Assembly (NCBI GenBank): GCA_965237525.1
Contig: CBDEFO010000004.1
Location: 1-64,000, forward strand
DNA length: 64,000 bases
Direction: 5' to 3'
DNA from: Candidatus Latescibacterota bacterium
GTDB taxonomy: Bacteria; Latescibacterota; CBDEFO01
Within the stretch, counting starts at the first letter, position 1. Every line of letters starts with the position of its first letter. Below the pieces are notes generated by a model, which worked only from the letters and a program-made list of their open reading frames with translations, had not been told where the DNA came from and searched no databases. This document shows, piece after piece, positions 16,850 to 50,572 of the stretch. Both the position numbers and the translations under genes were made by a program.

Positions 16850-17359
16850 ATGCGACTTAACTTTATAAGAAACAGGATACTCAAAGGTCAAAGATCATGT
16901 AATGATGAGTTGATCTGCATCCTCAAAGAGTCTGCCCTATTCGGTCACTTGAGCCAGCGGTCGATAAAGAAGATAAGCAAGGTCGTCCAGAAGGAAGACT
17001 TTGCCGAAGGCGAGGCGATCTTCAACCGGGGCGAGATCGGCCTCGGTCTTTATATTATCAAAAAGGGGAGCGTTGATATACTTAAAGATCGAGGCAAGGT
17101 GGCTCATTTAGAGGAAGGGGATTTCTTCGGGGAACTGTCTCTTTTGGATGAGTATCCCAATCCGGTCTGTGCTGTAGGCTCCGGTAACGGTGAACTTATC
17201 ATCTTCCGCCGATCGACTTTGCTGGAGCTCATCGCTGAAGAGCCGCGACTGGCTCTTAAGATTCTCATACGGCTAGATCAGATGACCGGTGAAAGAGTGC
17301 ACGCGCTGAATGAGGAAATCGAAGCAGTTCAGGCGGCATTACTTCTTGATCCCCGATAG
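16850..17359 (+). CDS. Cyclic nucleotide-binding domain protein
   Basis: IFNRGEIG..LYIIKKGSV..GDFFGELSLL. Its stop codon is supplied by the 21-nt palindrome. Confidence 0.8.
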   Translation: MRLNFIRNRILKGQRSCNDELICILKESALFGHLSQRSIKKISKVVQKEDFAEGEAIFNRGEIGLGLYIIKKGSVDILKDRGKVAHLEEGDFFGELSLLDEYPNPVCAVGSGNGELIIFRRSTLLELIAEEPRLALKILIRLDQMTGERVHALNEEIEAVQAALLLDPR

Positions 17360-17371
17360 ATTCAATTGGGG
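17351..17371. repeat. 21-nt palindromic element (CCCCGATAGAHTCAATCGGGG family); other copies at 19147, 20953, 22562, 24235, 25254, 32921, 44345, 47205, 47737, 50397 and a half copy at 34761
   Basis: Recurrent 7-bp stem CCCCGAT/ATCGGGG with loop AGA(A/T/C)TCA, found in both orientations. Confidence 0.9.
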
Positions 17372-17425
17372 ATCAAGAAGTAAAAACATCGGCGTCTAAT
17401 AAGCTCTAAATAGGGAGAACGCATA

Positions 17426-18613
17426 GTGGCTGCTGCCGGTTTTCCTGCGTCCACACAGATAATTAAGATCCTCCTCATCCTGGCGGCTATTTCACTTGTT
17501 GTATGGTTCTTGATAGCCATCAAGGGCATACTGTTCCCGTTTGCACTGGCCTTTCTTATTGCCTATCTATTCAATCCTGTGGTCAACAGACTCGAAGGAT
17601 TAGGCATAGGGCGCGGATGGGCTACCTTGATAATCTACTTGGTGCTCGCTCTATTGGCAGTCTTGATTATGATATTTGTCGCACCTCTGCTTGCCAGCGA
17701 AATAAAGGGACTGACGGGGAATATATTGCCGGCTCTTCTGGCCGCCACAGAAAGCGCGCACGCAGATTCGCTTGAGACAACCAGGAGCGCTGCTTCAGAT
17801 ACGGTGGGCGCTGCGCTTTCTGAATATGCACACGAACTTATCGGGAAGTTACAAACTCAGATAGAATCGCGGCTACCGCGCTTTATGTCTGATCTTATCC
17901 CGGGATTTAAGGCTGAGAGCATCACAGATCAGATAAGCCAATATTCGGAGGACATATTTAAGAACGTAGGGGAACTGCTTGCACAGCTCTTAGGAAGATC
18001 GGTGTCTTTGGTAGTCAACCTCTTCTCCTTAATATTCTTCCTGATAATAGCTCCTGTGGTGGCGTTCTTTGTGCTGAAAGAGGCCCCAACTGCCAAGGCA
18101 AGCTTCGTTGAACTCGTACCTAACAGGTACTTTGAGATGATTTTGAACCTCATTTACAGGATAGATAAGCAGATAGGCGGATACATAAGGGGTCAACTTA
18201 CGGTCTCTATTACCATAGCTTTACTGTGGACGACTGCGCTCCGGATAATAGGATTGAAGTACTATCTTGTCATAGGGGTGGCTGCCGGAGTCTTAAATCT
18301 CATTCCGTATCTTGGCCCTATAACTACAGCCTCGATAGTGATTATCGTCTCTTTGATTCAAAAGGGGATCGGAGGTTTCGTTCCGGCTGCGTTGACATTT
18401 GCGGTGATCCAGACTCTCGATGGAGTCTTCATCTCTCCGGTTGTGGTGGCAAGGAGCGTCAATCTGCATCCTGTGGTCGTGCTCTTTGTAGTCCTGGCCG
18501 GGAGTCAACTGCTCGGAATCATAGGTATGATCCTTGCTGTCCCTATAACGGGGATTATCAAGGTGACTGTCCAGACGCTCTACGAAGGCTTTAAGAGCTA
18601 CTCCGTGAGCTGA
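17426..18613 (+). CDS. AI-2E family transporter
   Basis: PFALAFLIAYLFNPVVNRLE, GGYIRGQL, NLIPYLGP and LHPVVVL..GMILAVP. Confidence 0.9.
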   Translation: MAAAGFPASTQIIKILLILAAISLVVWFLIAIKGILFPFALAFLIAYLFNPVVNRLEGLGIGRGWATLIIYLVLALLAVLIMIFVAPLLASEIKGLTGNILPALLAATESAHADSLETTRSAASDTVGAALSEYAHELIGKLQTQIESRLPRFMSDLIPGFKAESITDQISQYSEDIFKNVGELLAQLLGRSVSLVVNLFSLIFFLIIAPVVAFFVLKEAPTAKASFVELVPNRYFEMILNLIYRIDKQIGGYIRGQLTVSITIALLWTTALRIIGLKYYLVIGVAAGVLNLIPYLGPITTASIVIIVSLIQKGIGGFVPAALTFAVIQTLDGVFISPVVVARSVNLHPVVVLFVVLAGSQLLGIIGMILAVPITGIIKVTVQTLYEGFKSYSVS

Positions 18614-19119
18614 TGGGTGCTTTAGAGACAAGAAAGGTCGCCCAAATCGCAGCAGCGTGTGGATTGGGCGTCCTGCTTTCTCTAGTCAAGATCTATAGGA
18701 TGCCCCATGGAGGATCTATAACCCTTGAGGCCGTACCCATCTATATCCTCGCTTTAAGAGATGGCCCCAAAATAGGGATCACCGCCGGGGCTATTCTGGG
18801 ATTCCTCAAGCTTATAACCGGACCTTACATCGTTCACCCTCTCCAACTCGTGTTCGACTATCCTCTTGCCTTAGGGCTTCTGGGTATCTCTGGATTCTTC
18901 ACACAGCTGCCCTTTGCAGGAATTATAATCGGAGGCCTGGCAAGAGGAGCGTCTCACTTTCTTTCAGGTGTGATATTCTTCGGGCAGTACGCTCCACAGG
19001 GCACTCCGGTCTGGATCTACTCCGCTCTTTACAACGGAAGCTATGTGATCCCTGAGATTCTGATCGCCCTTTTGATAGTCCCGGTTCTTATTAAAAGGCT
19101 CAGGGCCGCTGAGTTGTGA
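18613..19119 (+). CDS. thiT: ECF-type thiamine transporter S component
   Basis: MPHGGSITL, HPLQLVFDYPLA, HFLSGVIFFGQYAP.G.PVWIYSALYNGSY. Confidence 0.85.
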   Translation: MGALETRKVAQIAAACGLGVLLSLVKIYRMPHGGSITLEAVPIYILALRDGPKIGITAGAILGFLKLITGPYIVHPLQLVFDYPLALGLLGISGFFTQLPFAGIIIGGLARGASHFLSGVIFFGQYAPQGTPVWIYSALYNGSYVIPEILIALLIVPVLIKRLRAAEL

Positions 19120-19230
19120 ACAGCAAATAAGCAGGGGCTAACAGATCCCCGATAGAATCAATCGGGGACAGGCGTGTTCGGCCAATTTACCTGTCTATTT
19201 GCGGACACGCACAGGTAACTCCGCATTTTC

Positions 19231-19257
19231 AGGGCAGACACGCGGGTCTGCCCCTAC
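19231..19257 (-). repeat. GTAG-type REP (GTAGGGGCAGACCCGYGTGTCTGCCCT); also at 47834-47860 and 50489-50515
   Basis: GTAG tetranucleotide followed by an imperfect palindrome; three near-identical copies. Confidence 0.8.
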
Positions 19258-19292
19258 ATATTCCCGTTCGCAGTGCTCACACCACTTTCCGG

Positions 19293-19321
19293 TTGACATC
19301 CATAGCATAACAGGATATATT
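19293..19321 (+). promoter_or_regulatory. Sigma70-like promoter
   Basis: TTGACA-17 bp-TATATT upstream of 19395. Confidence 0.6.
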
Positions 19322-19394
19322 GGAGCAAGACTTCAGTTTCTGAGGACAGCTCTGTAGGTTTCTTAACGTAAATCATACTCGGAGTCAATCACCT

Positions 19395-20849
19395 ATGGAA
19401 AAGATATCTACGCGTGCTGAAGAGACCGAAATCCTGAAGATCACCCTCGGCGAGCCAACCAAGCTCAGCTCTTTGGCCTATCAGAATACGGCGTGTTTGA
19501 TGGTATCACGGACAGGGGTCGTGGCGGCGTTCTATCCCAAGCCCGGTACGCGGCCTGCGTTTTACCGGATCTCCACCGATGGCGGGCTGACGTGGAGTCA
19601 GGAGATGGATTCTCCACTTGAGCTGGGTGGCGGCCAGAACAGCGGGACACTACGCGACGGCGGCGTGATCATGCCTGCCTCGATCGTTGATTCCTCTACT
19701 GAAGGGGAAGAGGACTGCTTCGATACGCTCTTTCTGCGGTTCACCGATGACATGATGAACTGGGAGACTGAGATAGCTCAGGTGTACGTTCCCAATGTTG
19801 TGCCCGGTCTTGACATACGAGATCTGACGTTTGCCAAAGGCAAGATGGTGCAACTTCCCAACGGGGATGTGCTATCGCCGGTGTACGGGAGGTTTGCGGG
19901 CGATATCCAGCACCGGGCGTACCTGATCAGATCGGATCACCAAGGACACGCGTGGCGGTATTACGGGACAATAGCTTATGATTCCGATGATCCGAACCCT
20001 GAGCTGCCGGGTCAGTACCTCGGCTCTTGCGAGCCGAGCATCGCTCTCCTGCCGAACGGGCAGATGCTGGCCATGCTTCGGGCGCAGTACTCGCATGTGC
20101 CGGCGGAATACAAGCCGATGTACGTCTGTTGGTCGGACGATCAGGGAAAGACGTGGACCGAGCCGGTGCCGACGAATCCCCACCTGATGAATATCTCTCC
20201 GACACTGCAGGTGCTGGATAACGGTGTGGTAGCGTGCGAGTATGGACGGCCGGGATTCCACGTGGCCTTCAGCACGGACAACGGCCACACATGGGGCAAC
20301 CGCATCAGCTTCACGCATTTGATTGAGCCCTCCAACACCGGCCAGTTTGATATGATAAAGCTTGGCCCGAACAAGCTGGTGGCTATCGGAAGCGACGAGG
20401 ATGGCACAAAGGTCTTTCCGATCACAGTCGAGCGTGTGCAGGTATCGCCGACGCGCGTGGTGTTGACGGGACGCGTGCTGGACGAAGAGGGCAACCCGAT
20501 TGTGGGCGCGAAGGTGGAGCGGAGCCCGAACCGCTACGCTGCCGACTCCTGGGTGGTGGATCCTGTCGGGTGGTCGAAGCGAGTCACCTTTCCCAATGAT
20601 CACCCAAGCCGGATGGTGCCGGCGGAATATATTCCCGAATTGGGATACCGATCGATTCAGAAGGGCAGCGATTGCCCGACGGTGGAGACCGACGCGCAGG
20701 GGAAGTTCCGATTCGAGGCCGTCAAGCTTGGTGAGCTGGTACTAACAATAGAGGTTTATAAGAGGTACAGCAGTGAGTACGAGCCGTTCAAGGGGACGAT
20801 TTCACTGTCGCGGATCGGACAACAACCGATCACTTTGAAGAAAAAGTAG
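19395..20849 (+). CDS. Sialidase/BNR-repeat protein with C-terminal carboxypeptidase regulatory-like domain
   Basis: Asp-boxes STDGGLTW, SDDQGKTW, STDNGHTW; C-terminal GRVLDEEGNPIVGAKV..TDAQGKFRF. Confidence 0.75.
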   Translation: MEKISTRAEETEILKITLGEPTKLSSLAYQNTACLMVSRTGVVAAFYPKPGTRPAFYRISTDGGLTWSQEMDSPLELGGGQNSGTLRDGGVIMPASIVDSSTEGEEDCFDTLFLRFTDDMMNWETEIAQVYVPNVVPGLDIRDLTFAKGKMVQLPNGDVLSPVYGRFAGDIQHRAYLIRSDHQGHAWRYYGTIAYDSDDPNPELPGQYLGSCEPSIALLPNGQMLAMLRAQYSHVPAEYKPMYVCWSDDQGKTWTEPVPTNPHLMNISPTLQVLDNGVVACEYGRPGFHVAFSTDNGHTWGNRISFTHLIEPSNTGQFDMIKLGPNKLVAIGSDEDGTKVFPITVERVQVSPTRVVLTGRVLDEEGNPIVGAKVERSPNRYAADSWVVDPVGWSKRVTFPNDHPSRMVPAEYIPELGYRSIQKGSDCPTVETDAQGKFRFEAVKLGELVLTIEVYKRYSSEYEPFKGTISLSRIGQQPITLKKK

Positions 20850-21065
20850 CAGATGCCATCTACTATTCCGAACCAAGTTCACACTCTGACGCGATCTCCG
20901 GACAGTTTACGACAAATTTAGCTGGTTCCTAACGGTCAACGCTCGATTGAATTCCCGATTGAGTCTATTGGGGATCGGCGGGATCGGGGGCTGCGGTAGA
21001 TGAGTTACCACACTGAATTAAATGAAAGGTAGGTTTGGAATTAACAAAGAAAATGGAGGTTATCC

Positions 21066-22559
21066 ATGAGGCGACGTCGAACGATCTACTTTAATGATGC
21101 ACGCCATTATTATCTATACGCCTTCGAGCCCCCCATGAAGTTGGAGGACGCCTGGAGGCCGATAGACGAAGTCGCAGGCACCGCCGTTGACACGTTCATC
21201 TACGGAGTCTCAAGCGGCGGACTCTTCTACCCCTCTAAGATTGGAGCACAATGGGGTGGAGATCAAAGTCCATTCGCTTATGCGTGGCGTGCACGGAAGA
21301 ATATGCAGAGCCTGATTGACAGGGGCCTTGACCCACTAACTGTACTCATCGACAGGGCCCATGAGGTAGGTTTGGACTTTTTCGCAAGCCTGCGTATGGG
21401 ATCCTTCAGCGGGAGTGAACCGCACTATCAGATCGGTGTGCCCGGACCGATGGAGGGCTGTCTGAACTTTGCTCATGCAGAGGCGCGCGATCATCAGTTT
21501 GCAGTCCTTGAGGAGCTGGCCACAGAGTATTCTGTAGAGGGGATAGAGCTAGACTTTGGCTATCCCCCGTTCTTCTTCAAGCCCGACGAAGTGGAAAAGC
21601 ACACTCCGTTGATGACAGAGTACGTCGGTAAGATCTCCGAAATGGTCCGGAATAGGCCGGGCGAGCCTGGGCAGGTCGGAGCTCGAGTATTCCCCACCGA
21701 AAAGATGTGCCTTGAGGCGGGACTGGACGTGCGCACGTGGTTTGAGGAGGGAATCGTTGACTTTGTGGTGCCGTTTTTGTACGGCTACTTTATACTTGAC
21801 CCTGACATGCCGATCGATTGGCTCATTCAATCGGCTCACCAAAACGACAGCGCATCTGTCTACGCAGTGCTTCAACCCTACTCAGAAGCCGAGAGCGTAG
21901 GATCTCATCTGAGAAAGTATGCTACACCTGAGATGATGCGAGCTGCTGCGGGAAACTCTTGGGATCGCGGCGCCGATGGTCTCTACACCTGGTTTTTGCG
22001 CTGGCCATTAGGCGATGCGGAACGCAGAATTCTCACGGAGATAGGCAATCCTGAACTATCAAAAGAAGGGGAAAAGCACTATGTCCTGCCGAGGCGGTGC
22101 GAAGCTACAGGTATCGGGCTTGTATATGATGCGGCACTGCCGATTGAAATCCCGTCTGCGGATCCGAACAGACGCTATGAGATCCCCTTCTATATATCAG
22201 ATGATATACAAGGATCTTCTGATCGCGTGCGTGAAGTACGACTTAGGATCAACGTCAGTAATCTGGTGACGGCGGACAATCTTGCGATCCTGCTGAACGG
22301 GAGGTCTCTGTCCAAAGAGACTTGCACGCGCACATACGGCGGACCACACAAGATCGGAGAAAGTAATGTTCCGTACCCCGGTCAGTGGTTGGAATTACAC
22401 TTGGAAGGGGAACGTCCACATAAGGGTGAGAACCTGTTAGAGGTGTCGCTGGAGAAGAGACCCGAGGGGTTCAAAGGAGGAGTGATAATCGAAGATGTGG
22501 AAATCGTAGTCGAATACGGTCCGTATGCGTCCAGCTTGAACTACCAACCGGACTCGTAG
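21066..22559 (+). CDS. Glycoside hydrolase-like 10 family TIM-barrel protein
   Basis: IYFNDARH, FFASLRM, LNFAHAEAR and EGIELDF. Confidence 0.6.
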   Translation: MRRRRTIYFNDARHYYLYAFEPPMKLEDAWRPIDEVAGTAVDTFIYGVSSGGLFYPSKIGAQWGGDQSPFAYAWRARKNMQSLIDRGLDPLTVLIDRAHEVGLDFFASLRMGSFSGSEPHYQIGVPGPMEGCLNFAHAEARDHQFAVLEELATEYSVEGIELDFGYPPFFFKPDEVEKHTPLMTEYVGKISEMVRNRPGEPGQVGARVFPTEKMCLEAGLDVRTWFEEGIVDFVVPFLYGYFILDPDMPIDWLIQSAHQNDSASVYAVLQPYSEAESVGSHLRKYATPEMMRAAAGNSWDRGADGLYTWFLRWPLGDAERRILTEIGNPELSKEGEKHYVLPRRCEATGIGLVYDAALPIEIPSADPNRRYEIPFYISDDIQGSSDRVREVRLRINVSNLVTADNLAILLNGRSLSKETCTRTYGGPHKIGESNVPYPGQWLELHLEGERPHKGENLLEVSLEKRPEGFKGGVIIEDVEIVVEYGPYASSLNYQPDS

Positions 22560-22767
22560 ACCCCCAATTGAATCTATCGGGGGGGATCGGGGGTAGACCT
22601 ATTTCAAAGGCCTCCAGATGGAATAGCCATATGCTGCTGGGGAGAGGTATTTAGATCAGAGAGGAGAGAATCAAATTCGCAAGCCAAGGCAAACCAGGTT
22701 TGTTGGCTCTGAATCAGGATCATCGGATGTGTTCAAGGTAAATCTCTAACGGTAAGGAGGTATCAAA

Positions 22768-23796: not shown

Positions 23797-23824
23797 TTGA
23801 TAGAAGGTACGAACGCAAAAGTTT

Positions 23825-23857: not shown

Positions 23858-24182
23858 TATCCTCCTCTGTCAAGATTGTTTGTCCAAAGAGTGGAAGCAG
23901 GCAGGGCATACAGGGAACATTTGAAATGGTGTGAAGAGAATAGCCACAAATCGCAAAGTGCCCAGGCTTTCGGTAGATGGATGAGTAAGAGATTTTAAAA
24001 AAGGAGGGAAGGAAAAGATAGAAAGACCTACTACTACGGTACAGCCCTACAGGACGATTTTGACAAGCTCTTCGAGATCCTCCATAACCCTGACTCGAAG
24101 ATAGAAGTTTATGATGCTGTTCCGAAGGAGAATCTGGACATATTTTTGTCAGAGTGACGCGTTTTTCTGAGAAAAACTTTTC

Positions 24183-24437
24183 TAACCTGATTAATTCATA
24201 AACTTGGTACAGTCATTGCGAGGAGCAAAGCGGTCCCCGATTGAGTCTATCGGGTAAGCAATCTCAAGGTTTTATAGTGGTATCCTATGAGAGCCCGAGA
24301 GTATTATATCTACCACAGCATCGAGATTGCTTCGCCTCCGGCTCGCAATGACACCGAAGGCGGTTAAACGTCATAACTATAATATAATACAATCCCTTAA
24401 TTAATACACAGCCTTTTTTTGTGAATTATTCGGGCTA
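24183..24437. repeat. MITE/REPIN-like composite: imperfect terminal IRs around an inverted GTCATTGCGAG..GCAATCTC / GAGATTGC..CTCGCAATGAC pair
   Basis: TAACCTGATTAATTCATAAA versus TTTGTGAATTATTCGGGCTA. The left inner arm is interrupted by the 21-nt palindrome. Related arms lie at 25232-25286, 33003-33034 and 50385. Confidence 0.55.
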
Positions 24438-24522
24438 AAACGTTTAGTTTTTTTGTACAGAAAGTTTATAGGAAATATCGTGTCATCGTGTCACAACAGG
24501 CAGAGAGGTTAAGATGGGCCGA

Positions 24523-25182
24523 CTAACGAAAACGTTGCCGCGAAGGGGTTTTCGGACGTCCTGTGGAGCGCGGTGGTTTGACCATCACCAAAGAATGTGG
24601 GTATTTCATCTTCCACTTTTCCCAGGTCGTGCGCTCTGAAGGGATATCTTTTAAGCAGACTCTTTTCAAAGGGCCGGCAATAGCAACGCCCTTTTGAGTC
24701 CATAAGCTGAAAGTGTTGCGGTCATACATAACCAAAGCGCTATTGCGCAGTATTCCTGACACTCCGAAGGTAAAACTGGTGTCCCTGATCCCACGACTTC
24801 GGGCGATCTCGCGGTCTATTTCGGGGATATGCACGATATCCTTTGCCACGATGGGTCACCATGTCACAGCGATTGGGTCCGAGCCGAGCGAATCGTTGAC
24901 TACTTCGCGGCCATCCAGAAATTTGATCGGATAAGCTTTGGCGATGCCTCTGAGATGTACCCCAATTACTCCGTCAGCGGGATTCAGAAAGCTTTCGGCT
25001 TCCTCGACGCTCACGAATTGCGGGTTACTGATAGCCGCAATAGAGTCAGAAGTTCTGGTGCGGATGGCCTTCCGTACGGATTCTAATTCATTATCTCCCC
25101 GGCCCTCTTGCGCAGAGATCCCTGTAGCACCCAAAAGCGACAGGGTTATGCTCGTAAGGGACAGCAGATTGACAACTCTCAT
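24523..25182 (-). CDS. DUF3179-family protein, probable selenoprotein (in-frame UGA at 24856-24858)
   Basis: Signal peptide, then AKAYP..EVVND..IAVTW-UGA-PIV..FGVSGILRNSALVMYDRNTFSLWTQ..TTWEKWK..P in one frame. A hairpin follows the UGA. Confidence 0.75.
24825..24841 (-). promoter_or_regulatory. Candidate bacterial SECIS hairpin
   Basis: On the minus strand, GGAUAU-CGUGC-AUAUCC begins 14 nt after the UGA, with G at loop position 2. Confidence 0.5.
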
Positions 25183-25452
25183 AATTTGTATCCCGACTTG
25201 ATGACACTGGTTATGGTTAGAATCTTTGAATGAGATTACTTCGCTTCCCTGACCCCCCATAGATTCAATCGGGAACTCGCAATGACATTGCCTTGATCCT
25301 CCTTTTTGGAGAGGGGGGCAATGGGGATCCATCTTCTTACAACCCGCACAAATTTACTCTAATGCTTACTTGATGTCTACAGAATAAGACGCTTAATGAT
25401 TGGGTTTGGTTGCTTATCTACTCTGTATTTGAAGCTGCAGACCCTTCGAAGC

Positions 25453-32751: not shown

Positions 32752-33153
32752 GGGTGCCTCCCGAATCTGTGGTGATCACGGTAATAATATATCCGACAGA
32801 CGCATCAATGTCAATCAAAAAGGGATCAGTTGTTTTTGATTCGGACAAATAAGTTACATTTTTCCCGAGCTTACTCAGGTCTTTGGTGATAAGAATCCAG
32901 ACTGCTTCTCCCCGATCCGCCCCCGATAGATTCAATCGGGGGTAGACTCAATCGGGGCGCTGGCCATGACAGTTCAGAGGACAGGAAAGGACGAAACGGA
33001 AAGGTCATTGCGAGGGGTTCACCCCCAGGCAATCTGGTGGGAGGTGCCCCTGCTGGTGGATCTGTTAACTCCACCCCTACTGTCTACTCTATTTATCTAT
33101 CCTTGAAGCCATTTTAGATGTGGAACGCCCACTGCGAAAGGAGATGAAACGCC

Positions 33154-35147: not shown

Positions 35148-36666
35148 AAGCCTTGTGAAAAACCCTTAGATTCAGAAAGTAGTATAGAACAAGCATTGAT
35201 AAAGCAGTTCCGATGTATTATATTATGTTATTGATAATATTATACATGGAGGAAACAATGACCCCACAAAAGCAGGAACAGACAAATCCGATGTTTCACT
35301 ATTTTCAGATGGAGGATTTAGTTCCCGAGGATCATATCCTTCGTCAGATTGATGAGGCAGTTGATTTTTCATTTGTACGAGACGTTGTATCAGATTGTTA
35401 TTGCCCTGACAATGGCAGACCCGGTATTGATCCTGAATTAGTTGTTCGAATGATCCTTATTGGCTATCTGTATAATTTGAGTGAGAATCGGCTCTGTCAG
35501 GAAGTGGGGATGCATGCGGCATATCGGTTGTTTTGTCATCAGACATTTGATGATGCGGTTCCGGATAGGAGCACGATCAACAAGCTTCGCAATCACAAGT
35601 GGGCATCCAGTGGGTTGTTTGAACGGATAATGCGTCAGGTAGTCCAGTGTTGCATAGATGTCGGTGTTGTGAGCGGTAAACACCTTAGTGTCGACGGCAC
35701 TCAGATACAAGCTGATGCTTCAGTGAAAAGTATTGAGCCGATAGAACCCCCTGTTTCTCTTGATGATTATCTCAAGGGAATCGGTTTTGAAGGTGATAAG
35801 ACAAAGGGTAGGTCCGGGCATCCTCAGGATAAAGACTTTCATGGTGAAAAGTGGACGAACCAAACACACCGTTCGACTACAGACCCCGACGCGCGCTTAT
35901 ACAGCAAATCGAAGGGCAAAGGGGCTTTTCTCTCGTTTATGGGCCATGATCTGATCGACACAAAAAGCAGAGTAATCCTTGAGACTCAGGGCACGCAGGC
36001 GACAGGGACAGCAGAGCCCGAAAGTGCCCTTAAGATGGTAGATGACCTTGAAACATACACCATGCCCAAAGACATTCAGACACTTAGTGCCGATACCGGT
36101 TACGGTTCTGGTAATTTTATCGCTGATGTACTTGACCGGGGAATCATACCCCATATTCCTCTGCGAGCCGATGAGAAGATTGAACCGATTCCTACATGGA
36201 AAAACAAGACAAATTCAGCACATATTCAGGCCGAACGGGATAGAAAAGTGCGAGAGGCGAAAGCCAGAAATCATGCACGGTCTATCTCATTAACAGCTGA
36301 CTACAAACTCTCCCGGAGACTCCGTAAACGCAGTGAACATATCTTTGCTGAAGCCAGGCAACAACACGGTATGGGACGAGCCCGTTATAGAGGACCAGCC
36401 TCACTGAATGAACAGTTGAATCTTGTTGCAACAGTACAGAATCTCAAGAGGCTTGTATCTTTCATAAGAAGGGGGAAAGCGTCTATGTGTGCCCTGTCTG
36501 TCAAAGACAGTGCATCCTGTTCTTCAAACAGCTCCTATTCCTTGCTGACCAGAACTCTGATAAGACTATTTTGCTTATTCCACAGCAAAACGATACGATA
36601 TGCTACTCTTTGACCCATAATCGGCGCTTCAGACGCTGCCTGGGACATAACTATTTCACAAGGCTT
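35148..36666 (+). mobile_element. IS1182-family IS, copy 1 (transposase 35213-36613), flanked by CTAA duplication
   Basis: Terminal IR AAGCCTTGTGAAA; transposase motifs LVPEDHILR..GRPGIDP..VDGT..TTDPDA..ADTGY..EHIFAE. Confidence 0.9.
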
Positions 36667-36937
36667 CTAAATATCAATAACTTTACTATGCCGAACCATT
36701 CAGCCTACATTCTGACCGAAAAGACGTGTAAAACGCCTGTTAAGTGAAAATACTTTTGTTCTGTCTCTACAAACAGATATAATTATCGCGAGCGTGACGG
36801 ATAAGACAAGTACACGCACCAAATGGAAATAGCAACTATTAGCAGTGAAAGCAACGGACTTGAGCCTGATCAGTTTCATAAGAGTAGGGAAACCTTAAAA
36901 AGGTAAAGAGAAGTTCTTCAAATTTGGGGGAGAACAC

Positions 36938-38809: not shown

Positions 38810-39017
38810 CCTGAACTCGAACTGGAGGAAGCTATCGCTTGAATTAAGAATCTGTCAAGGGGCTCGGCACGACTCGACTTAAGGCGCGTGGCGCGCGGGT
38901 CCCCAGCAGATATACGAATAACGGCGATGCAGACTATGTGAGGTCTTACAGCCGTGGAGTATGACATAGATTCAAAAATAGCTACATAACTTCGGAAGTT
39001 TTTTTGTCTCGTATTAG

Positions 39018-40536
39018 AAGCCTTGTGAAATAGTTATGTCCCAGGCAGCGTCTGAAGCGCCGATTATGGGTCAAAGAGTAGCATATCGTATCGTTTTGCT
39101 GTGGAATAAGCAAAATAGTCTTATCAGAGTTCTGGTCAGCAAGGAACAGGAGCTGTTTGAAGAACAGGATGCACTGTCTTTGACAGACAGGGCACACATA
39201 GACGCTTTCCCCCTTCTTATGAAAGATACAAGCCTCTTGAGATTCTGTACTGTTGCAACAAGATTCAACTGTTCATTCAGTGAGGCTGGTCCTCTGTAAC
39301 GGGCTCGTCCCATACCGTGTTGTTGCCTGGCTTCAGCAAAGATATGTTCACTGCGTTTACGGAGTCTCCGGGAGAGTTTGTAGTCAGCTGTTAATGAGAT
39401 AGACCGTGCATGATTTCTGGCTTTCGCCTCTCGCACTTTTCTATCCCGTTCGGCCTGAATATGTGCTGGATTTGTCTTGTTTTTCCATGTAGGAATCGGT
39501 TCAATCTTCTCATCGGCTCGCAGAGGAATATGGGGTATGATTCCCCGGTCAAGTACATCAGCGATAAAATTACCAGAACCGTAACCGGTATCGGCACTAA
39601 GTGTCTGAATGTCTTTGGGCATGGTGTATGTTTCAAGGTCATCTACCATCTTAAGGGCACTTTCGGGCTCTGCTGTCCCTGTCGCCTGCGTGCCCTGAGT
39701 CTCAAGGATTACTCTGCTTTTTGTGTCGATCAGATCATGGCCCATAAACGAGAGAAAAGCCCCTTTGCCCTTCGATTTGCTGTATAAGCGCGCGTCGGGG
39801 TCTGTAGTCGAACGGTGTGTTTGGTTCGTCCACTTTTCACCATGAAAGTCTTTATCCTGAGGATGCCCGGACCTACCCTTTGTCTTATCACCTTCAAAAC
39901 CGATTCCCTTGAGATAATCATCAAGAGAAACAGGGGGTTCTATCGGCTCAATACTTTTCACTGAAGCATCAGCTTGTATCTGAGTGCCGTCGACACTAAG
40001 GTGTTTACCGCTCACAAGACCGACATCTATGCAACACTGGACTACCTGACGCATTATCCGTTCAAACAACCCACTGGATGCCCACTTGTGATTGCGAAGC
40101 TTGTTGATCGTGCTCCTATCCGGAACCGCATCATCAAATGTCTGATGACAAAACAACCGATATGCCGCATGCATCCCCACTTCCTGACAGAGCCGATTCT
40201 CACTCAAATTATACAGATAGCCAATAAGGATCATTCGAACAACTAATTCAGGATCAATACCGGGTCTGCCATTGTCAGGGCAATAACAATCTGATACAAC
40301 GTCTCGTACAAATGAAAAATCAACTGCCTCATCAATCTGACGAAGGATATGATCCTCGGGAACTAAATCCTCCATCTGAAAATAGTGAAACATCGGATTT
40401 GTCTGTTCCTGCTTTTGTGGGGTCATTGTTTCCTCCATGTATAATATTATCAATAACATAATATAATACATCGGAGCTGCTTTATCAATGCTTGTTTTAT
40501 ACTATTTTCTGAATCTAAGGGTTTTTCACAAGGCTT
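39018..40536 (-). mobile_element. IS1182-family IS, copy 2 (transposase 39071-40471)
   Basis: Near-identical to copy 1 with the same IRs; flanks TTAG / TTAA. Confidence 0.9.
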
Positions 40537-40760
40537 TTAAAGTGCGGAAACTATCGTTCTTTATCCACAATTTTCAGGATGCAGATGATCTTGACCTTGA
40601 GAGGATAGAGATGTGTTCTTTCCACTGCGCCACTTCCGATGGGTCTGTCTCTATGTGTCTTCACAATGCCAAAAGGGACGATTTCATATTGCCCCATGTA
40701 GAACCGATGTCGAGAAACACAGGAGGAGAACGATGGCAAAGTACAGAGTTGGGATTGTAG
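40537..40760 (+). pseudogene. C-terminal remnant of a radical SAM protein, cut by the IS
   Basis: KVRKLSFFIHNFQDADDLDLERIEMCSFHCAT..SMCLHN resembles the C-terminal FQD..C..C segment of 36938-38809. Confidence 0.55.
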
Positions 40761-41372: not shown

Positions 41373-42056
41373 GTGACAGCTCTTATTAAGAGGTCATCTG
41401 TTATGTCAAAACGGGTATTATTTCTGATATTGATTGTAATTGCACCTCATTTTAATTGTGCGAAACATTCACATGTAAGGCATTGGACTGAAAAAACAGA
41501 ATGGACCTACGAACAAACAGATTCGTTAATTCTTGAAAGAAAAATCATAGAATACGCTGAATTGTTAGATAATTTGCGTGCTGAGTCTGCGAGATATGCA
41601 GGCTTTGATAATGCACTGCCTGCAAATCTCTCGGAATATACTAATCTTAATAAAAACTCAATTTTGAGGATTGTTGCAATAACACGTGATAAGGAAGAGC
41701 TTCCAATAAAGAATGCATACATAGATTACTCAGGTAGGAAAGTAAAATTAGAAGAAATGTTAACCACGTTCACCGAAGTAAAGGATGGAATCGTGAAGAG
41801 AGTCTTGGGAGGTCACCGTCAGGATTTCTTCTATTTATTCCCGATTTATCTGCAATTGAGAGAATGTGAGTTGTTAATTGATTGGAATAAGAATAGAGAA
41901 GCCTTCAGCATAGGGAAATTTCCGATGGGAATAGGTTTACGATTTATTGTTGACGATGAAAATGTGGAGGATCAAAATTACGAAGTCAAGAGTAAATCGC
42001 TCAAAGAGATTCTAAGGAGAGAGTTTTCCGTCTTCATTAAAAGCCTTGTGAAATAG
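41373..42056 (+). CDS. Hypothetical (lipoprotein-like) protein whose 3' end runs into the IS
   Basis: AT-rich ORF; the last codons KSLVK* come from the IS terminal repeat. Confidence 0.55.
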   Translation: MTALIKRSSVMSKRVLFLILIVIAPHFNCAKHSHVRHWTEKTEWTYEQTDSLILERKIIEYAELLDNLRAESARYAGFDNALPANLSEYTNLNKNSILRIVAITRDKEELPIKNAYIDYSGRKVKLEEMLTTFTEVKDGIVKRVLGGHRQDFFYLFPIYLQLRECELLIDWNKNREAFSIGKFPMGIGLRFIVDDENVEDQNYEVKSKSLKEILRREFSVFIKSLVK

Positions 42057-43559
42057 TTATGTCCCAGGCAGCGTCTGAAGCGCCGATTATGGGTCAAAGA
42101 GTAGCATATCGTATCGTTTTGCTGTGGAATAAGCAAAATAGTCTTATCAGAGTTCTGGTCAGCAAGGAACAGGAGCTGTTTGAAGAACAGGATGCACTGT
42201 CTTTGACAGACAGGGCACACATAGGCGCTTTCCCCCTTCTTATGAAAGATACAAGCCTCTTGAGATTCTGTACTGTTGCAACAAGATTCAACTGTTCATT
42301 CAGTGAGGCTGGTCCTCTATAACGGGCTCGTCCCATACCGTGTTGTTGCCTGGCTTCAGCAAAGATATGTTCACTGCGTTTACGGAGTCTCCGGGAGAGT
42401 TTGTAGTCAGCTGTTAATGAGATAGACCGTGCATGATTTCTGGCTTTCGCCTCTCGCACTTTTCTATCCCGTTCGGCCTGAATATGTGCTGGATTTGTCT
42501 TGTTTTTCCATGTAGGAATCGGTTCAATCTTCTCATCGGCTCGCAGAGGAATATGGGGTATGATTCCCCGGTCAAGTACATCAGCGATAAAATTACCAGA
42601 ACCGTAACCGGTATCGGCACTAAGTGTCTGAATGTCTTTGGGCATGGTGTATGTTTCAAGGTCATCTACCATCTTAAGGGCACTTTCGGGCTCTGCTGTC
42701 CCTGTCGCCTGCGTGCCCTGAGTCTCAAGGATTACTCTGCTTTTTGTGTCGATCAGATCATGGCCCATAAACGAGAGAAAAGCCCCTTTGCCCTTCGATT
42801 TGCTGTATAAGCGCGCGTCGGGGTCTGTAGTCGAACGGTGTGTTTGGTTCGTCCACTTTTCACCATGAAAGTCTTTATCCTGAGGATGCCCGGACCTACC
42901 CTTTGTCTTATCACCTTCAAAACCGATTCCCTTGAGATAATCATCAAGAGAAACAGGGGGTTCTATCGGCTCAATACTTTTCACTGAAGCATCAGCTTGT
43001 ATCTGAGTGCCGTCGACACTAAGGTGTTTACCGCTCACAAGACCGACATCTATGCAACACTGGACTACCTGACGCATTATCCGTTCAAACAACCCACTGG
43101 ATGCCCACTTGTGATTGCGAAGCTTGTTGATCGTGCTCCTATCCGGAACCGCATCATCAAATGTCTGATGACAAAACAACCGATATGCCGCATGCATCCC
43201 CACTTCCTGACAGAGCCGATTCTCACTCAAATTATACAGATAGCCAATAAGGATCATTCGAACAACTAATTCAGGATCAATACCGGGTCTGCCATTGTCA
43301 GGGCAATAACAATCTGATACAACGTCTCGTACAAATGAAAAATCAACTGCCTCATCAATCTGACGAAGGATATGATCCTCGGGAACTAAATCCTCCATCT
43401 GAAAATAGTGAAACATCGGATTTGTCTGTTCCTGCTTTTGTGGGGTCATTGTTTCCTCCATGTATAATATTATCAATAACATAATATAATACATCGGAGC
43501 TGCTTTATCAATGCTTGTTCTATACTACTTTCTGAATCTAAGGGTTTTTCACAAGGCTT
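42041..43559 (-). mobile_element. IS1182-family IS, copy 3 (transposase 42094-43494)
   Basis: Near-identical to copies 1 and 2; flanks TTAA / CTAA. Confidence 0.9.
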
Positions 43560-43678
43560 CTAATGCACAACCAAAATGATAGACTCGTTTGGGTTTTATA
43601 CGTGCTTTCTCCGCCGCAAAGCGCCAAGTTGCAGTAGTCTGGGGCCGTTCTGTTCATTGCTCTGGCGCAAGGTAGGCG

Positions 43679-44964
43679 CATACCGCTCCCCTTGACAGAG
43701 CGAAAATATTTCGCAAATTGGGGTTTGAGAAGGGAGGTCAAATTGTCAAGCCCCGAAGTGAAGGATGGTAAGCGCTGGACGGCGACCCGTAAGGTGGAGG
43801 TGGTGTTGGCTGTTTTGAAAGGGGCGAATGCATCAGAGGTATGTTGGAAGAATGGAATCAGCCAGTCACAGGCGTATGCCTGGCGTGATAGTTTCCTGGA
43901 AGGAGGCCAGGAGAGTCTGAAGTCTCGGCGTGGTCGCAAGGATCCGAAGGAGCGGGAGGTCAGCCGGTTGGAGCGTAAGGTAGGGCAGTTAACCCTCCAG
44001 TTGGAGATACTCGAGGAGGTAGCCCGTCTAAAAAAAACGAAGCGGTTGCCTTGAGTGGGCGGTTTTTGGGTCGAGGCTATTCCCACAAGGTGGTAGCTAT
44101 GGCTTTGGCTTTGCATCGTTCGACTCTGTATAGGCTCAGGTATAGAGGTGTCAGTTCTTCTGTCGAAGAGTCTGTGATAGATGAACAGCTTGCTTTTCGT
44201 GTTCGAGGGATACTCGACCAAGAAGAGGCATTTGGTCACAGGCGGGTTTGGGCGCATCTTCGTTTCAAGGAAGGGGAATGTGTCAACATCAAGAAGGTTC
44301 ATAGGATAATGAAGCTTAAGGGGTGGCAGTGTAAGCTGTGGAATCCCCGATAGAATCAATCGGGGACCCCGGGAGAAAGGGGCCACAGGTTGCCCAGAAG
44401 CGTTCTGTGATGGATCGTCCTGACAGTCTCTGGTCGGCTGACTTGACCAGGATCTATTGTGGGGAAGACGGTTGGTGTCCTCTTATTGCGGTGGTGGACA
44501 ACGGGAGTCGGGAGGTTCCCGGGTATCGTTTTAGTCGAAAAGGGAGGGCACTGGAGGCCACAGATGCCCTGGATCGGGCTGTGATCTCTCGATACACTTC
44601 CAAGGAAGTTGTCCCCCAGGGTCTCACTTTGCGCTCTGACAATGGTTCCATCTTTTTGGCTCGGGCCTATTTGGCGAGTACCGAATATTGGGGAATTCGT
44701 CAGGAATACATACCAAGTGGTAAGCCCGATTGGAACGGTGTTGTAGAGCGTTTTTTCAGGACCCTCAAGCAAGAGTGTGTTTGGCTTCACAAGTTTGAAT
44801 CCTTTGAACAGGCTGAGAAGATCATATCTCAGTGGATCGATAATTACAACAACAACAGGCTTCATTCATCCCTGGGATATAAGACCCCAGAAGAGTGGAG
44901 AAAACAATTCTAATCTACTACCCCAGGTTGCTTAATTGATGTCGCTTTCCAAGGGGGTAGTACA
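43679..44964 (+). mobile_element. IS3-family element, copy A (orfA about 43743-44054; orfB to 44913, interrupted at 44345)
   Basis: HTH orfA, A8C slippery run at 44030-44038, rve motifs WSADLT..SDNG..ERFFRTLK..LHSSLGY.TP, imperfect IRs ending in CA. Confidence 0.85.
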
Positions 44965-44977
44965 GAAAGGAGATGAC

Positions 44978-46237: not shown

Positions 46238-46241
46238 ACCC

Positions 46242-46512
46242 ACGACCACCATTAACGAGTTCGACGTTGAGCAGGCTGCGCTTGGCTGGCTGCAGGGCCT
46301 CGGCTGGCGTGTGGCCCAGGGGCCGGACATTGCCTCGGAGCGTGCCGACTACGGGGCGGTGGTGCTGGAGCGGCGGCGGGGCGCGCCTCCCGCCCGGCTC
46401 AACCCGGGAGCTGCCCGCCGAGGCGTTGGAGGACGTCTTGCGCAGGCTGACCAGACCGGAAGGACCGACCCTGCAACCGCGCCTTCCACCGGATGCTGGT
46501 GGAGCGCCCGTC
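46242..46512 (+). pseudogene. Type I restriction enzyme HsdR N-terminal fragment
   Basis: NEFDVEQAALGWLQGLGW..GPDIA.ER.DY..VVLE..RLNP / ELPAEALED..RRL / NRAFHRMLV, with frameshifts. Confidence 0.7.
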
Positions 46513-46544
46513 ACAGATGAACAGGGAAGAGGGAAGAAGGGAAA

Positions 46545-47732
46545 CATACCGCTCCCCTTGACAGAGCGAAAATATTTCGCAAATTGGGGTTTGAGAAGGG
46601 AGGTCAAATTGTCAAGCCCCGAAGTGAAAGATGGTAAGCGCTGGACGGCGACCCGTAAGGTAGAGGTGGTGTTGGCTGTTTTGAAAGGAGCGAATGTATC
46701 AGAGGTGTGTCGGAAGAATGGAATTAGCCAGTCACAGGCGTATGCCTGGCGTGATAGTTTCTTAGAAAGAGGCCAGGAGAGTCTGAAGTCTCGGCGTGGT
46801 CGCAAGGATCCGAAGGAGCGGGAGGTCAGCCGGTTGGAGCGTAAGGTAGGGCAGTTAACCCTCCAGTTGGAGATACTTGAGGAGGTAGCCCGTCTAAAAA
46901 AAACGAAGCGGTTGCCTTGAGTGGGCGGTTTTTGGGTCGAGGCTATTCCCGTAAGGTGGTAGCTTTGGCTTTGCATCGTTCGACTCTGTATAGGCTCAGG
47001 GATAGAGGTGTCAGTTCTTCTGTCAAAGAGCCTGTGATAGATGAACAGCTTGCTTTTCGTGTTCGAGGGATACTCGACCAAGAAGAGGCATTTGGTCACA
47101 GGCGGGTTTGGGCGCATCTTCGTTTCAAGGAAGGGGCATGTGTTAACATCAAGAAGGTTCATAGGATAATGAAGCTTAAGGGGTGGCAGTGTAAGCTGTG
47201 GAATCCCCGATAGAATCAATCGGGGACCCCGGGAGAAAGGGGTCACAGGTTGTCCAGAAGCGTTCTGTGATGGATCATCCTGACAGTCTCTGGTCGGCTG
47301 ACTTGACCAAGATCTATTGTGGAAAAGACGGTTGGTGTCCTCTTATTGTGGTGGTGGACAACGGGAGTCGGGAGGTTGCCGGGTATCGTTTTAGTCGAAG
47401 AGGGAGCGCACTGGAGGCCACAGATGCCCTGGATCGGGCCGTGATCTCTCGATACACCTCCAAGGAGGCTGTCCCCCAGGGTCTCACTTTGCGCTCTGAC
47501 AACGGCTCGATCTTTTTGGCTCGGACCTATTTGGCCAGTACCGAATATTGGGGAATTCGTCAGGAGTACATACCAAGTGGTAAGCCCGATTGGAACGGTG
47601 TTGTAGAGCGTTTTTTCAGGACCCTCAAGCAAGAGTGTGTTTGGCTTCACAATCTTGGATCCCTTGAACAGGCTGAGAAGATCATATCTCAGTGGATCGA
47701 TAATTACAACAAGAACAGGCTTCATTCATCCC
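46545..47732 (+). mobile_element. IS3-family element, copy B, 3'-truncated at a palindrome cluster
   Basis: Diverged copy of A; identity stops after CTTCATTCATCCC; same palindrome in orfB at 47205. Confidence 0.85.
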
Positions 47733-47926
47733 GCCGCCGAATGATTCTATCGGGGGTTCAATCGGGGACTCAAGAGAAGGGAGAAGGTGTCCCTGTATAC
47801 CGGGCGAACACGTGGAGAAAGCATTCATCTGTTGTAGGGGCAGACCCGTGTGTCTGCCCTGAAATGATGACTACAATGTGAGGAGGAACCCTTCCTTGAT
47901 TCCTTGAACCGAAAGGAGCACCAGAT

Positions 47927-48934
47927 ATGAGCGCATTTTCAAAGTGGGAAATACTAATCGAAAAGGCAGAAACGTTCCGCAAACAAGTTCAGTATGAGAA
48001 AGCAGTTAAGGTTGGCAAAGAGGCTTTGAAAGTAGCTGAGAACACTTTCGGTCCAGACCATCCCGATGTGGCGACCTCCCTGAACGGTCTGGCGGGACTT
48101 TATGTGGCTCAGGGCAAGTATGCCGAGGCTGAACCCCCTTTCAAGCAGGCACTGGCAATAAGGGAAGAAGTCCTTGGCAAAGACCATCCCGATGTGGCGA
48201 CCTCATTGAACGATCTGGCGGTACTTTACAGAGTTCAAGGCAAGTATGACGAGGCTGAACCCCTATTCAAGCGGTCACTGGCAATAAGGGAAGAAGTCCT
48301 TGGCAAAGACCACCCCGATGTGGCGGGCTCACTGAACAATCTGGCGGTACTTTATGGTTCTCAGGGCAAGTATGACGAGGCTGAACCCCTATTCAAGCGG
48401 TCACTGGCAATAAGGGAAGAAGTCCTTGGCAAAGACCATCCCGATGTGGCGACCTCATTGAACGATCTGGCGGTACTTTATGCTTCTCAGGGCAAGTATG
48501 CCGAGGCTGAACCCCTTTTCAAGCGGGCACTGGCAATAAGGGAAGAAGTCCTTGGCAAAGACCATCCCGATGTGGCGACCTCCCTGAACAGTCTGGGGTT
48601 ACTTTACAGAGATCAGGGCAAGTATGCCGAGGCTGAACCCCTTTTCAAGCGGGCACTGGCAATAAGGGAAGAAGTCCTTGGCAAAGACCATCCCGATGTG
48701 GCGACCTCCCTGAACGGTCTGGCGGGACTTTATGTGGCTCAGGGCAAGTATGCCGAGGCTGAACCCCTTTACAAGCGGTCACTGGCAATAAAGGAAAAAG
48801 CCCTTGGGCCAGATCACCCCGATGTGGCTACTGTGTTGGAGAATATGGCGGAACTTTACAGAGATCTTGGTAAAGAAGATGAAGCCAAGAGGTTGGCCGA
48901 ACGTGCGAGAAGAATTCGTTCAAGAAACCAGTGA
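47927..48934 (+). CDS. TPR protein, six 42-aa (126-bp) repeats plus cap, no signal peptide
   Basis: DHPDVATSLNxLAxLYxxQGKYxEAEPLFKRxLAIREEVLGK repeats. Confidence 0.9.
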   Translation: MSAFSKWEILIEKAETFRKQVQYEKAVKVGKEALKVAENTFGPDHPDVATSLNGLAGLYVAQGKYAEAEPPFKQALAIREEVLGKDHPDVATSLNDLAVLYRVQGKYDEAEPLFKRSLAIREEVLGKDHPDVAGSLNNLAVLYGSQGKYDEAEPLFKRSLAIREEVLGKDHPDVATSLNDLAVLYASQGKYAEAEPLFKRALAIREEVLGKDHPDVATSLNSLGLLYRDQGKYAEAEPLFKRALAIREEVLGKDHPDVATSLNGLAGLYVAQGKYAEAEPLYKRSLAIKEKALGPDHPDVATVLENMAELYRDLGKEDEAKRLAERARRIRSRNQ

Positions 48935-48988
48935 TGGCAATATGGCACAAATTCACCTTCGGAGAATTTCCATTTTACGGATAGCGCA

Positions 48989-49997
48989 ATGGCAAGGATA
49001 AGGGACATCGGAATAAAGATAGGCGACCTTGAAACGGGAGAACTCAACTCCATCTCTGACGTCGAGGGCACGAAAGCAGGGCACGTTGACATAGGTCATG
49101 ACGGAACGCCCTTAAGGACCGGAATAACTGCCGTAGTGCCCCCTCGACAGGAGAAGAGAAGAAAACTCTTCATCGGTAGATAAGGCGTCAAAGACTGGGA
49201 CGGAATGACAGGCTTGAGCGTAGCTGAGGACTTTGGGACGTTCTCATCTCCCGTAGTTTTGACGAGTGCTGCAAGCGTGGGCTGCCCATAGACGCCGGAT
49301 GGCCACCCGTCGTGATAGGCCTGGACGATTCCTATCTGAACGACCCTGAAAAGGAAAGAGAGATAAAGGAGGACATCCTCTTTGAATGCTTCCAGAAAGC
49401 GCAAGGAGAAAAAGTGGAAGAGGGAAACGTGGGAATCGGAAGAGGACTGTGCGCCTTCGGACTAAAAGTTGGAATCGGGCAATCGTCCAGAAAAGTCCAG
49501 GGCTACGCCGTAGGCATCCTTGTAGCGTCCAACGGAGGAATCAGGAGGAGCCTGACTGTGGATGGAGTTCCGGTCGGAAGACATCTCTCTGCGCCCCAGC
49601 CACAGGGCATGCTCACAAGGTCAATCGTGGCAGTAACCGCCACAGACGCCCCTTTGACCCCAAAGCCAGTTGGACCACCTTTCGGAGATGACCGGAGCAG
49701 GTTTGATAAAAACGGGGTTCATAGACGCTCATATAGACCAGGGATTGATAGTTTCTTTTTCCACTTCAAATTCCATAGACGCTCCCTTCGAGAATCAAAA
49801 GACCTACAGAATCAGATCTGTTCCCCAAGGAAGACCTCTATCCTCTCTTCGACGCTGCCATAGAAGCTGCTCAAGAGGCCGGATTGAACTCACTTACCAC
49901 ATCGAAAAGTGCAGAAGGCAAGGACGGACGAAGGATAGAGGCGATACCCCAAGATCAGCTCGTCGCAATAATGCGAATATACAAGGGGATCGACTGA
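48989..49997 (+). pseudogene. Peptidase S58/DmpA (P1) family, inactivated
   Basis: RIRDIGIKIG..GELNSISDVEG..GH..RTGITAVVP; TAC>TAA at 49181, a ~49-bp deletion between CGTGGGC microhomologies, and later frameshifts. Confidence 0.75.
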
Positions 49998-50022
49998 TCA
50001 TGCCCGAACCATTTCTTTCAAC

Positions 50023-50238
50023 TTATCTATCTGCTCTTGCCTTCCCAGAACGATGAGCATATCTCCTTCCTTCAACTCTTATCGATTCGACTATACCCAG
50101 TTGATGCGCCTCGATCCCCATCCGTTCTACGGCGTAGTTGTTGAATATAGGGACGTGTATCCCGGTTAACGTAAACGAGAGCGCAAATACCGAAATAGCA
50201 AGCAAGATAAAGTTTCGTCTGATCTGGTCCGAATTCAA
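50023..50238 (-). pseudogene. N-terminal fragment of an MFS-like membrane protein
   Basis: RNFILLAISVFALSF..IFNNY..QLGIVESIR followed by an abrupt end. Confidence 0.45.
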
Positions 50239-50572
50239 GGCTACCTATTCTTCGAATAGACAAAAAATGTTGATGTTGAGAATATAATTGGTTATACTAA
50301 AAGGCGACATTAAACTTAGCAATATAGAAGAGTAATGTCAAGCTTAAACACCTTTTGTCCTTACAATTTCAGTTTGGGGAATATGAGATTGCTTCCCCCC
50401 GATTGAATCTATGGGGGACTCAAGGGAAGGGAAGAGGTGGGCCTGTATACTGGGCGAATACGCGAGTTGCCCCCTACATTCATCAGTTGTAGGGGCAGAC
50501 CCGTGTGTCTGCCCTGAAATAAGGTTACAGTTGTGAGCTCAGTATATCAGTGAGCCGAAAGGAGCACCAGAA

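Follow-up and report, generated by a model that had tools for sequence, protein, structure and literature searches.

We report that a 64,000-nucleotide stretch of DNA from Candidatus Latescibacterota bacterium (contig CBDEFO010000004.1 of assembly GCA_965237525.1, positions 1 to 64,000; the whole stretch is referred to below as the window) contains copies of a dispersed 23-base DNA hairpin that encodes nothing and that, with about 500 copies in its genome and dozens of sites that are empty in the nearest relative, is among the smallest DNA elements known to behave as mobile. As judged from aligned filled and empty sites, the hairpin is a true micro-insertion, inserted singly and with both paralogous and orthologous empty sites. 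The reading that we prefer, at a probability of roughly 55%, is that host repair copies this non-coding hairpin into nicks or gaps as single-stranded DNA (ssDNA), probably helped by a hairpin-cutting nuclease acting in trans. An earlier note on the window had described the palindrome as a host-specific micro-insertion spread by an enzyme encoded elsewhere; its observation is confirmed and its interpretation is partly supported. The analysis draws on the source genome of the window (G000; 4.58 Mb in 8 contigs, 96.6% complete) and on the sole other genome of the same genus (G001; a single 4.54-Mb contig, about 95% identical), the comparison between the two covering 2.8 of the 4.54 Mb of the latter.

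Copies were scored against the 21-mer CCCCGATAGA-N-TCAATCGGGG as exact or as having at most two or three mismatches. The genome-wide count that the earlier note had called for gave 210 exact copies, 516 with at most two mismatches (the set to which the figure 516 refers throughout) and 578 with at most three in the source genome, where every contig holds some; a first-order Markov model predicts 1.6e-5 exact matches for the genome and 2.5e-7 for the window, and the reversed pattern, run as a control, had none. Grouping the copies by flanking sequence resolved the 578 copies into 485 distinct flank clusters, 450 of them with a single member, and the copies are therefore not pieces of one longer element, such as the remnants of an insertion sequence (IS) that the earlier note had considered. 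The two largest clusters are passengers, comprising 37 copies in a dispersed repeat of about 260 bp and 10 in an IS3 element.

The full unit, Y-CCCCGATAGA-N-TCAATCGGGG-R, is 23 nucleotides (nt) long and not about 21 as first proposed, because the 21-mer is flanked by a Y at position 0 and an R at position 22, which form a TA or CG pair in 416 of the 516 copies (81%); paired ends are also found in 53 of 56 metagenome contexts. Its predicted fold is an 8-bp stem (-7.5 kcal/mol, z -3.7) with an A.A mismatch and a short loop on top, and compensated stem variants occur in 28 flank clusters (21 + 7), compared with 44 single changes at that pair. Together, the paired ends and the compensated variants indicate that the fold of the hairpin matters. 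Some copies carry an additional 4-nt tail (CAGG or CAAG), with ACAGG or ACAAG lying 3' of the unit in 31 of 487 clusters and 5' of it in 9. A search of the window against Rfam returned no match.

Comparison of orthologous sites in the genome pair revealed numerous insertions within its time scale of divergence. Both flanks were matched in the relative for 195 of 577 source-genome copies tested, resolving into 135 shared, 51 empty (passengers of IS3 and of the dispersed repeat included) and 9 half sites; in the reciprocal direction, 168 of 302 copies were matched, with 137 shared, 24 empty and 7 half, such that the core is missing in 75 of 363 comparisons. Lineage-specific copies are nearer the consensus in the source genome (31 of 51 exact versus 39 of 135 shared copies, p=9e-5, passengers included), with a similar tendency in the relative (13 of 24 versus 47 of 137, p=0.07), and the IS3 reading frame is intact only in the empty IS3 copies, which together show that the polarity is one of gain and not of loss. 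Of the 316 distinct indels of 12-60 nt in 2.09 Mb of alignment, 97 involve the core, making the hairpin the largest single source of short indels in the pair. A second short hairpin family, AGTGG-N5-7-CCACT (54 strand-matches in the source genome and 18 in the compared 2.8 Mb of the relative), also recurs among indels of +18 nt (e.g. G000:C2:20047 and C6:329205).

Sixty-one of the 75 empty sites could be resolved at the junctions, yielding 48 events after de-duplication, with one repeat site probably counted twice. Net gains were +19 (14 events), +27 (8), +20 (6), +18 (4), +21 (4), +26 (2), +22 (1), +24 (1) and other values (8); 40 of the 48 thus fall within +18 to +27, with none at +23 or +25. 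In the +19 events the 23-mer replaces four target bases, insertion usually removing 2-5 and most often 4. The +27 class, eight events in all, is mixed: a CAGG or CAAG tail that is missing from the target came along in five, four bases (TTCA, TTGA) are duplicated in two, and the last is complex. Direct repeats of 4 nt flank the 23-mer in 23 of 487 clusters compared with 3.2 expected (maximum 10 in 200 shuffles), and 21 of these 23 repeats start and end with complementary bases. The junctions themselves are ragged, with microhomologies of 1-3 nt. Fixed unit boundaries combined with ragged, microhomologous joints fit a folded single strand patched in by repair, as opposed to cut-and-paste transposition by a DDE enzyme or the precise strand transfer of an HUH enzyme. 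Under the reading favoured here, the folded single strand would be either a released oligonucleotide or an extruded chromosomal copy, whose foot may anneal by 1-3 bases to a free 3' end before being ligated or copied in; annealing of this kind would explain the ragged junctions, and a nuclease acting in trans would define the ends of the donor, a step favoured by the constancy of the unit boundaries.

The main rival dispenses with an enzyme altogether: a stalled replicative or repair polymerase would switch by microhomology to an extruded hairpin, copy it and return a few bases away, with abundance feeding on itself. It can draw on the same ragged junctions and microhomologies, on the 119 of 516 copies that lie in or against older copies, on the failure to find a mover common to both genomes (see below) and on a local correction in the window beside the copy at 17350..17372, where positions 17342-17345 read CTTC in the source genome and GAGA in the relative and in sequencing runs X2, X4 and X5. 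Confined to the source genome, this change completes the palindrome and is a fold-back correction, a clean footprint of template switching that shows single-strand templating at these loci and counts for the preferred reading as well. On the other hand, boundaries that stay constant at 23 or 27 nt across unrelated flanks, other phyla included, and the gap at +23 are unlike what a simple return to the same microhomology predicts, and the dominance of one sequence over the many other hairpins among short indels is left unexplained. We therefore regard enzyme-free switching as possible and on balance doubtful, and the three enzymatic routes considered next as weaker still.

None of eight candidate families (RAYT, Ssn, IS110, reverse transcriptase (RT), Ku, Cas1, TnpB and IS200) was common to the two genomes, a result to be read with the sensitivity of such searches in mind, as PF01797 (Y1_Tnp) was blank in the source genome where NF047646 matched a RAYT below its cut-off, and a blank is not proof of absence. 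Matches to Ku, TnpB, Cas1 and IS200 were found in neither genome and IS110 in the source genome only. Two RT genes are present in the relative (C1:3678513-3678905 and 3731598-3732140), and the RVT_1 search of the 96.6%-complete source genome gave no match. Insertion templated by RNA, through reverse transcription of a hairpin transcript, has reportedly been suggested for cyanobacterial small dispersed repeats (SDRs), and the variable length of the 3' tail (A, AC, ACAGG) as well as the two RT genes would suit such a route; we nevertheless consider it very unlikely for this hairpin, given that the genome with no RVT_1 match has the more lineage-specific copies and that orientation is unbiased relative to both flanking genes (128:128) and host open reading frames (ORFs; 32:38).

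The 176-aa RAYT-type Y1 transposase gene detected through NF047646 (C8:1476118-1476648 of the source genome) raises the alternative that the hairpin is an ordinary singlet of a repetitive extragenic palindrome (REP), which the resident RAYT would mobilise by HUH cleavage and strand transfer. A copy lies 70 nt downstream of the gene, copies are enriched some 3.5-fold near GTAGGGGC REPs (34 versus 9.4 expected within 100 nt), and the conserved A.A mismatch in the stem recalls the bulge described for group 2 REPs (PMC8266576). This route nonetheless seems improbable, as the arms of the RAYT are GTAGGGGCGAG-type GTAG REPs that differ from the hairpin, with one core nested in the right arm, and a GTRG tag lies at the foot of only 52 of 516 copies, whereas TnpAREP is described as requiring GTAG and cleaving at CT or CA (PMC8266576). 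Inverted doublets number 9 compared with 35 same-orientation pairs, among 39 other relatives lacking the hairpin 23 have RAYT matches, and none was found in the hairpin-bearing relative G001, in which PF01797 picked up only a sub-cut-off fragment with a stop; similar enrichment near CGTC arms and heptamers suggests in addition that repeat-rich spacers are simply tolerant. We give scarcely any weight to a fourth route, in which an IS1182-type transposase moves the hairpin through chemistry that replaces stem-loops. IS1272 is described as replacing inverted-repeat targets without duplication (PMC5678879), and an IS1182/IS5-like element is very abundant here, with three copies in the window (35148-36671, 39014-40542 and 42037-43563) and about 140 in the source genome; its ends are however unlike the core, and inspection of 30 of its 89 full-length flank pairs revealed neither a core nor obvious palindromic targets. 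The earlier note had advised looking for a Y1/RAYT, IS200/605 or RT gene flanked by the motif: the RAYT has different arms, IS200 gave no match in either genome and RT was found in the relative only.

For the hairpin-cutting nuclease of the reading that we prefer, one candidate is an Ssn-type GIY-YIG gene (95 aa; G000 C4:479836-480123), which lies between two CGTC/SRM arms inside a local duplication. Ssn nucleases are described as binding such REP hairpins and cutting ssDNA beside them (PMC11893778), and it is suggestive at most that the source genome, which has both ssDNA nucleases, carries about twice as many lineage-specific copies as its relative. The Ssn-type cassette looks recently gained or lost, and eleven such SRMs are present in the source genome.

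Several results weigh against copying by host repair with the help of a nuclease. No nuclease is tied to the hairpin: the sole Ssn-type gene has its own SRM arms with a different loop, no core lies within 4 kb of it, and both it and the RAYT with its GTAG arms had no match in the relative and are missing at the orthologous sites there. Likewise, 80 of 116 short ORFs adjoining copies in metagenomes gave no match to a Y1, GIY-YIG or other mobile-element family. Clean duplications make up only two of the eight +27 events, and targets of +19 events show the RYNNRY frame only weakly (a mean of 2.7 out of 4 versus a background of 2.0, n=13). Among 25 events of +18 to +22, 12 have CG at the target centre, compared with a background of 5%, and because the core begins with C and ends with G this enrichment is partly built in, via microhomology with the core's own ends. 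Empty targets fold not significantly better than intergenic controls (p=0.08, n=49), and the lagging-strand bias that an IS200-like ssDNA route might show is lacking (188:197 in the source genome, 109:101 in the relative).

The hairpin often lands at a CG step, in the loop of another repeat or in the TAGA of an older copy. Besides the 119 copies in or beside older ones, the 516 include 110 within arms of CGTC-type REPs and 54 at GTAGAC heptamers, the other 233 lying elsewhere; each repeat class shows a 3-5-fold enrichment of copies nearby against a simple intergenic null, which may partly reflect the tolerance of repeat-rich spacers. Arrays of the heptamers GTAGACA/TAGACAG occur genome-wide (67 tandem doubles) and are frequent landing sites. 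Most copies (357 of 516) have no other copy within 1 kb, and the 9 inverted pairs are those within 200 nt. Under a crude ORF model, intergenic copies number 369 of the 516, and another 70 lie well inside predicted ORFs, in stop-free frames that read as SPIDSIG-, PDRFNRG- or PRLNLSG-like peptides; these in-frame copies are survivors and not a design feature. The earlier note had seen no copies in the GC-rich blocks of the window, and indeed none with four or fewer mismatches lies outside 17.3-50.4 kb. This gap is not GC avoidance: genome-wide, density is flat above a GC content of 0.44 (10.3 per 100 kb at 0.56 or more, compared with 11.5-12.8 at 0.44-0.56).

Contrary to the earlier view of the hairpin as host-specific, the exact 21-mer occurs at at least 120 metagenome loci with a GC content of about 0.36-0.69 and little similarity to the source genome, and of eight proteins neighbouring such copies the five with cluster names are all from Deltaproteobacteria or Thermodesulfobacteriota. 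Within the host phylum, three of 168 genomes match when one mismatch is allowed, the third with a single copy, and the relative holds 178 exact copies; the family therefore crosses phyla, though within its host phylum only the genus carries it in number. Viral contigs gave no exact match, and a plasmid search returned only two weak matches at E=2. A complete GTCAT...ATCC REP frame encloses the core at one metagenome locus (L326), and the loops of neighbouring metagenome SRMs are related; from these sequences it is likely that the hairpin began as the head of the stem-loop of a CGTC/SRM-type REP whose tag would since have been lost, although the reverse order, in which the hairpin came first and the CGTC/SRM REP later, is also conceivable. 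A bolder and rather doubtful extension is that 23/27-nt hairpin heads replicate across phyla without any dedicated gene, the 27-nt form integrating whole as a dumbbell-shaped ssDNA circle (+27) and the 23-nt head swapping for a 4-nt target loop (+19). The 27-nt form would then, speculatively, be a hairpin with a YNNR tetraloop as its tail, and its predicted circular fold (about -4 kcal/mol, with the tail forming a 4-nt loop) accords with the events of the tail class. Were this to hold, a gene-free mobile unit near the physical minimum would be jumping between phyla and adding loops of 6-9 residues to proteins.

Within the window, all eleven loci that the earlier note had listed, between 17351 and 50417 and in both orientations, were recovered, with one start moved from 47737 to 47735. 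All are related to the consensus given there, which is exact at four only (19147, 32921, 44345 and 47205); four others differ by one mismatch (17351, 22562, 24235 and 50397), two by two (20953 and 25254) and one by three (47735). The first unit (17350..17372, forward strand), shared by both genomes, has a stem that extends to a near-perfect 45-nt hairpin (17339-17383) and supplies, as previously proposed, the TAG at 17357-17359 that terminates the ORF at 16850-17359, which encodes a cNMP-binding protein. The second (19146..19172, forward) is an intergenic 27-nt form, a T-core-A followed by the tail CAGG, whose site is empty in the relative (net +27) and for which the contig of run X4 over 16809-19547 shows 27 gap letters. 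Four sequencing runs were compared, as assembled contigs; they bear out the 17342 variant and the gap letters at 19147 and resolved no further clean empty sites.

The next copies illustrate frequent nesting. That at 20953..20973 (reverse) lies within a cluster of half copies that is more nested in the relative, by +29 nt, and that at 22562..22582 (reverse), common to both genomes, is nested in an older copy adjoining GTCTAC. The copy at 24235..24255 (reverse) occupies the loop of a CGTC-type REP arm in the ~260-bp dispersed repeat, at a site that is empty in the syntenic stretch of the relative (net +20) and that a pattern count found filled in 37 and empty in 15 of the repeat copies of the source genome. 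This repeat (24176-24440) has CGTC-type arms, dozens of copies and two separate target sites for the hairpin. At 25254..25274 (forward) a copy common to both genomes lies inside an arm of the GATTGCTT...GCAATGAC type; a DUF3179 gene at 24523-25332 is split into two ORFs (24856-25332 and 24523-24849), the upstream one overlapping this copy. An exact copy at 32921-32941 with flanking half copies (32905..32957, forward) sits inside a REP arm that is plain and without a core in the relative, and the cluster appears to result from repeated self-insertion. The splitting of REP arms, which the earlier note had proposed for 24235, 25254 and 50397, is thus upheld by empty sites at 24235 (and at 32921) and is read from context alone at 25254 and 50397.

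The remaining copies are associated mainly with IS3. The exact copy at 44344..44367 (forward) splits IS3 orfB, with a net gain of +20 and a frameshift, and the same ancestral insertion, with identical flanks, recurs in a second IS3 copy at 47204..47227 (forward), so that the reported interruption of orfB stands at both places; sites of this type are filled in 10 and empty in 3 IS3 copies of the source genome and filled in 6 and empty in 32 in the compared part of the relative. These two copies and that at 24235 accordingly ride inside IS3 and the ~260-bp repeat and are not the separate insertions they had been taken for. A diverged copy with a half copy (47735..47755, reverse) abuts the truncated right end of the second IS3 at 47732, which gives one instance of the suggested marking of rearrangement ends, its cause not being established. 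The leader of a TPR gene holds the last copy (50397..50417, reverse), within a REP-like arm, and no ortholog was found in the syntenic stretch of the relative tested. Upstream of all copies, a GC-rich, defence-like island (800-16500) encodes ThiF, a split SNF2 helicase, a DUF1156 methylase, SIR2-HerA and DUF499, and had no megablast match in the 2.8 Mb of the relative compared.

It has long been asked how REP-like palindromes spread when they have no transposase, and the present system shows a tagless REP head inserting within the time scale of a genome pair 95% identical, breaking an IS3, supplying a stop codon and adding in-frame loops, while offering filled and empty sites by the dozen, together with a junction rule that can be tested (23 nt, -4 or +4). 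Two known kinds of element can be set aside. Classification as a miniature inverted-repeat transposable element was rejected, since junctions range from deletion to a 4-nt duplication and the ends of the two families compared, IS1182-like and IS3, are unrelated; so was that as a CRISPR repeat, the copies being dispersed, with no Cas1 in either genome and no Rfam match in the window.

Cyanobacterial SDRs were reportedly found by Elhai et al. in 2008 as filled and empty sites and inside genes. They are described as repeats of about 20 nt, possibly mobile and with no known mover (PMC2884548). On the general definition of SDRs, to which the comparison is confined, our hairpin qualifies (a unit of about 20-30 nt, filled and empty orthologous sites, no cognate enzyme), and it differs in phylum and sequence, in its near-perfect hairpin, in its -4/+4 junctions and in its frequent self-nesting. 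Rickettsia palindromic elements, as described in PMC3733652, insert in frame into proteins, as do the 70 copies deep in ORFs, whereas the hairpin is shorter and most of its insertions (+19, +20) have lengths not divisible by three and survive outside genes. With GTAG REPs and REPINs it shares an imperfect palindrome of 20-40 nt, hundreds of mostly extragenic copies and a mismatch in the stem, yet in that group replication is ascribed to the doublet, and singlets are regarded as dead (PMC3116915, PMC8266576), whereas here singlets move, inverted doublets are few, no cognate RAYT is flanked by the hairpin, junctions lose or gain target bases and the tag is missing, with many of the GTRG motifs found within 0-3 nt of either foot deriving from heptamer targets. 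The hairpin further resembles CGTC REPs and SRMs, which have the same CCCG...CGGG stem-loop with an 8-9-bp stem, some intragenic copies and no known dedicated transposase (PMC3733652, PMC11893778); CGTC REPs are stated to be without an enzyme of their own and possibly on the way to extinction (PMC3733652). Here, by contrast, the liberated head inserts alone, often into CGTC arms, without head-to-head dimers; no ssnA GIY-YIG gene is flanked by the hairpin, and the CGTC REP/SRM tag ((C/T)GTCAT before the stem, with a CCA-like tail) accompanies one of the 516 copies, none in the compared part of the relative and one in the metagenomes (L326). Our literature search found no paper on this hairpin, the supplementary lists of REP/SRM variants of PMC3733652 and PMC11893778, which could contain it, lying outside that search. 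The phenomenon thus has precedents in SDRs and Rickettsia palindromic elements, and the gain is one of mechanism and not of kind: what appears to be new, on the evidence of the sequences, is a tagless 23/27-nt hairpin that is actively spreading and whose junctions follow a measurable rule.

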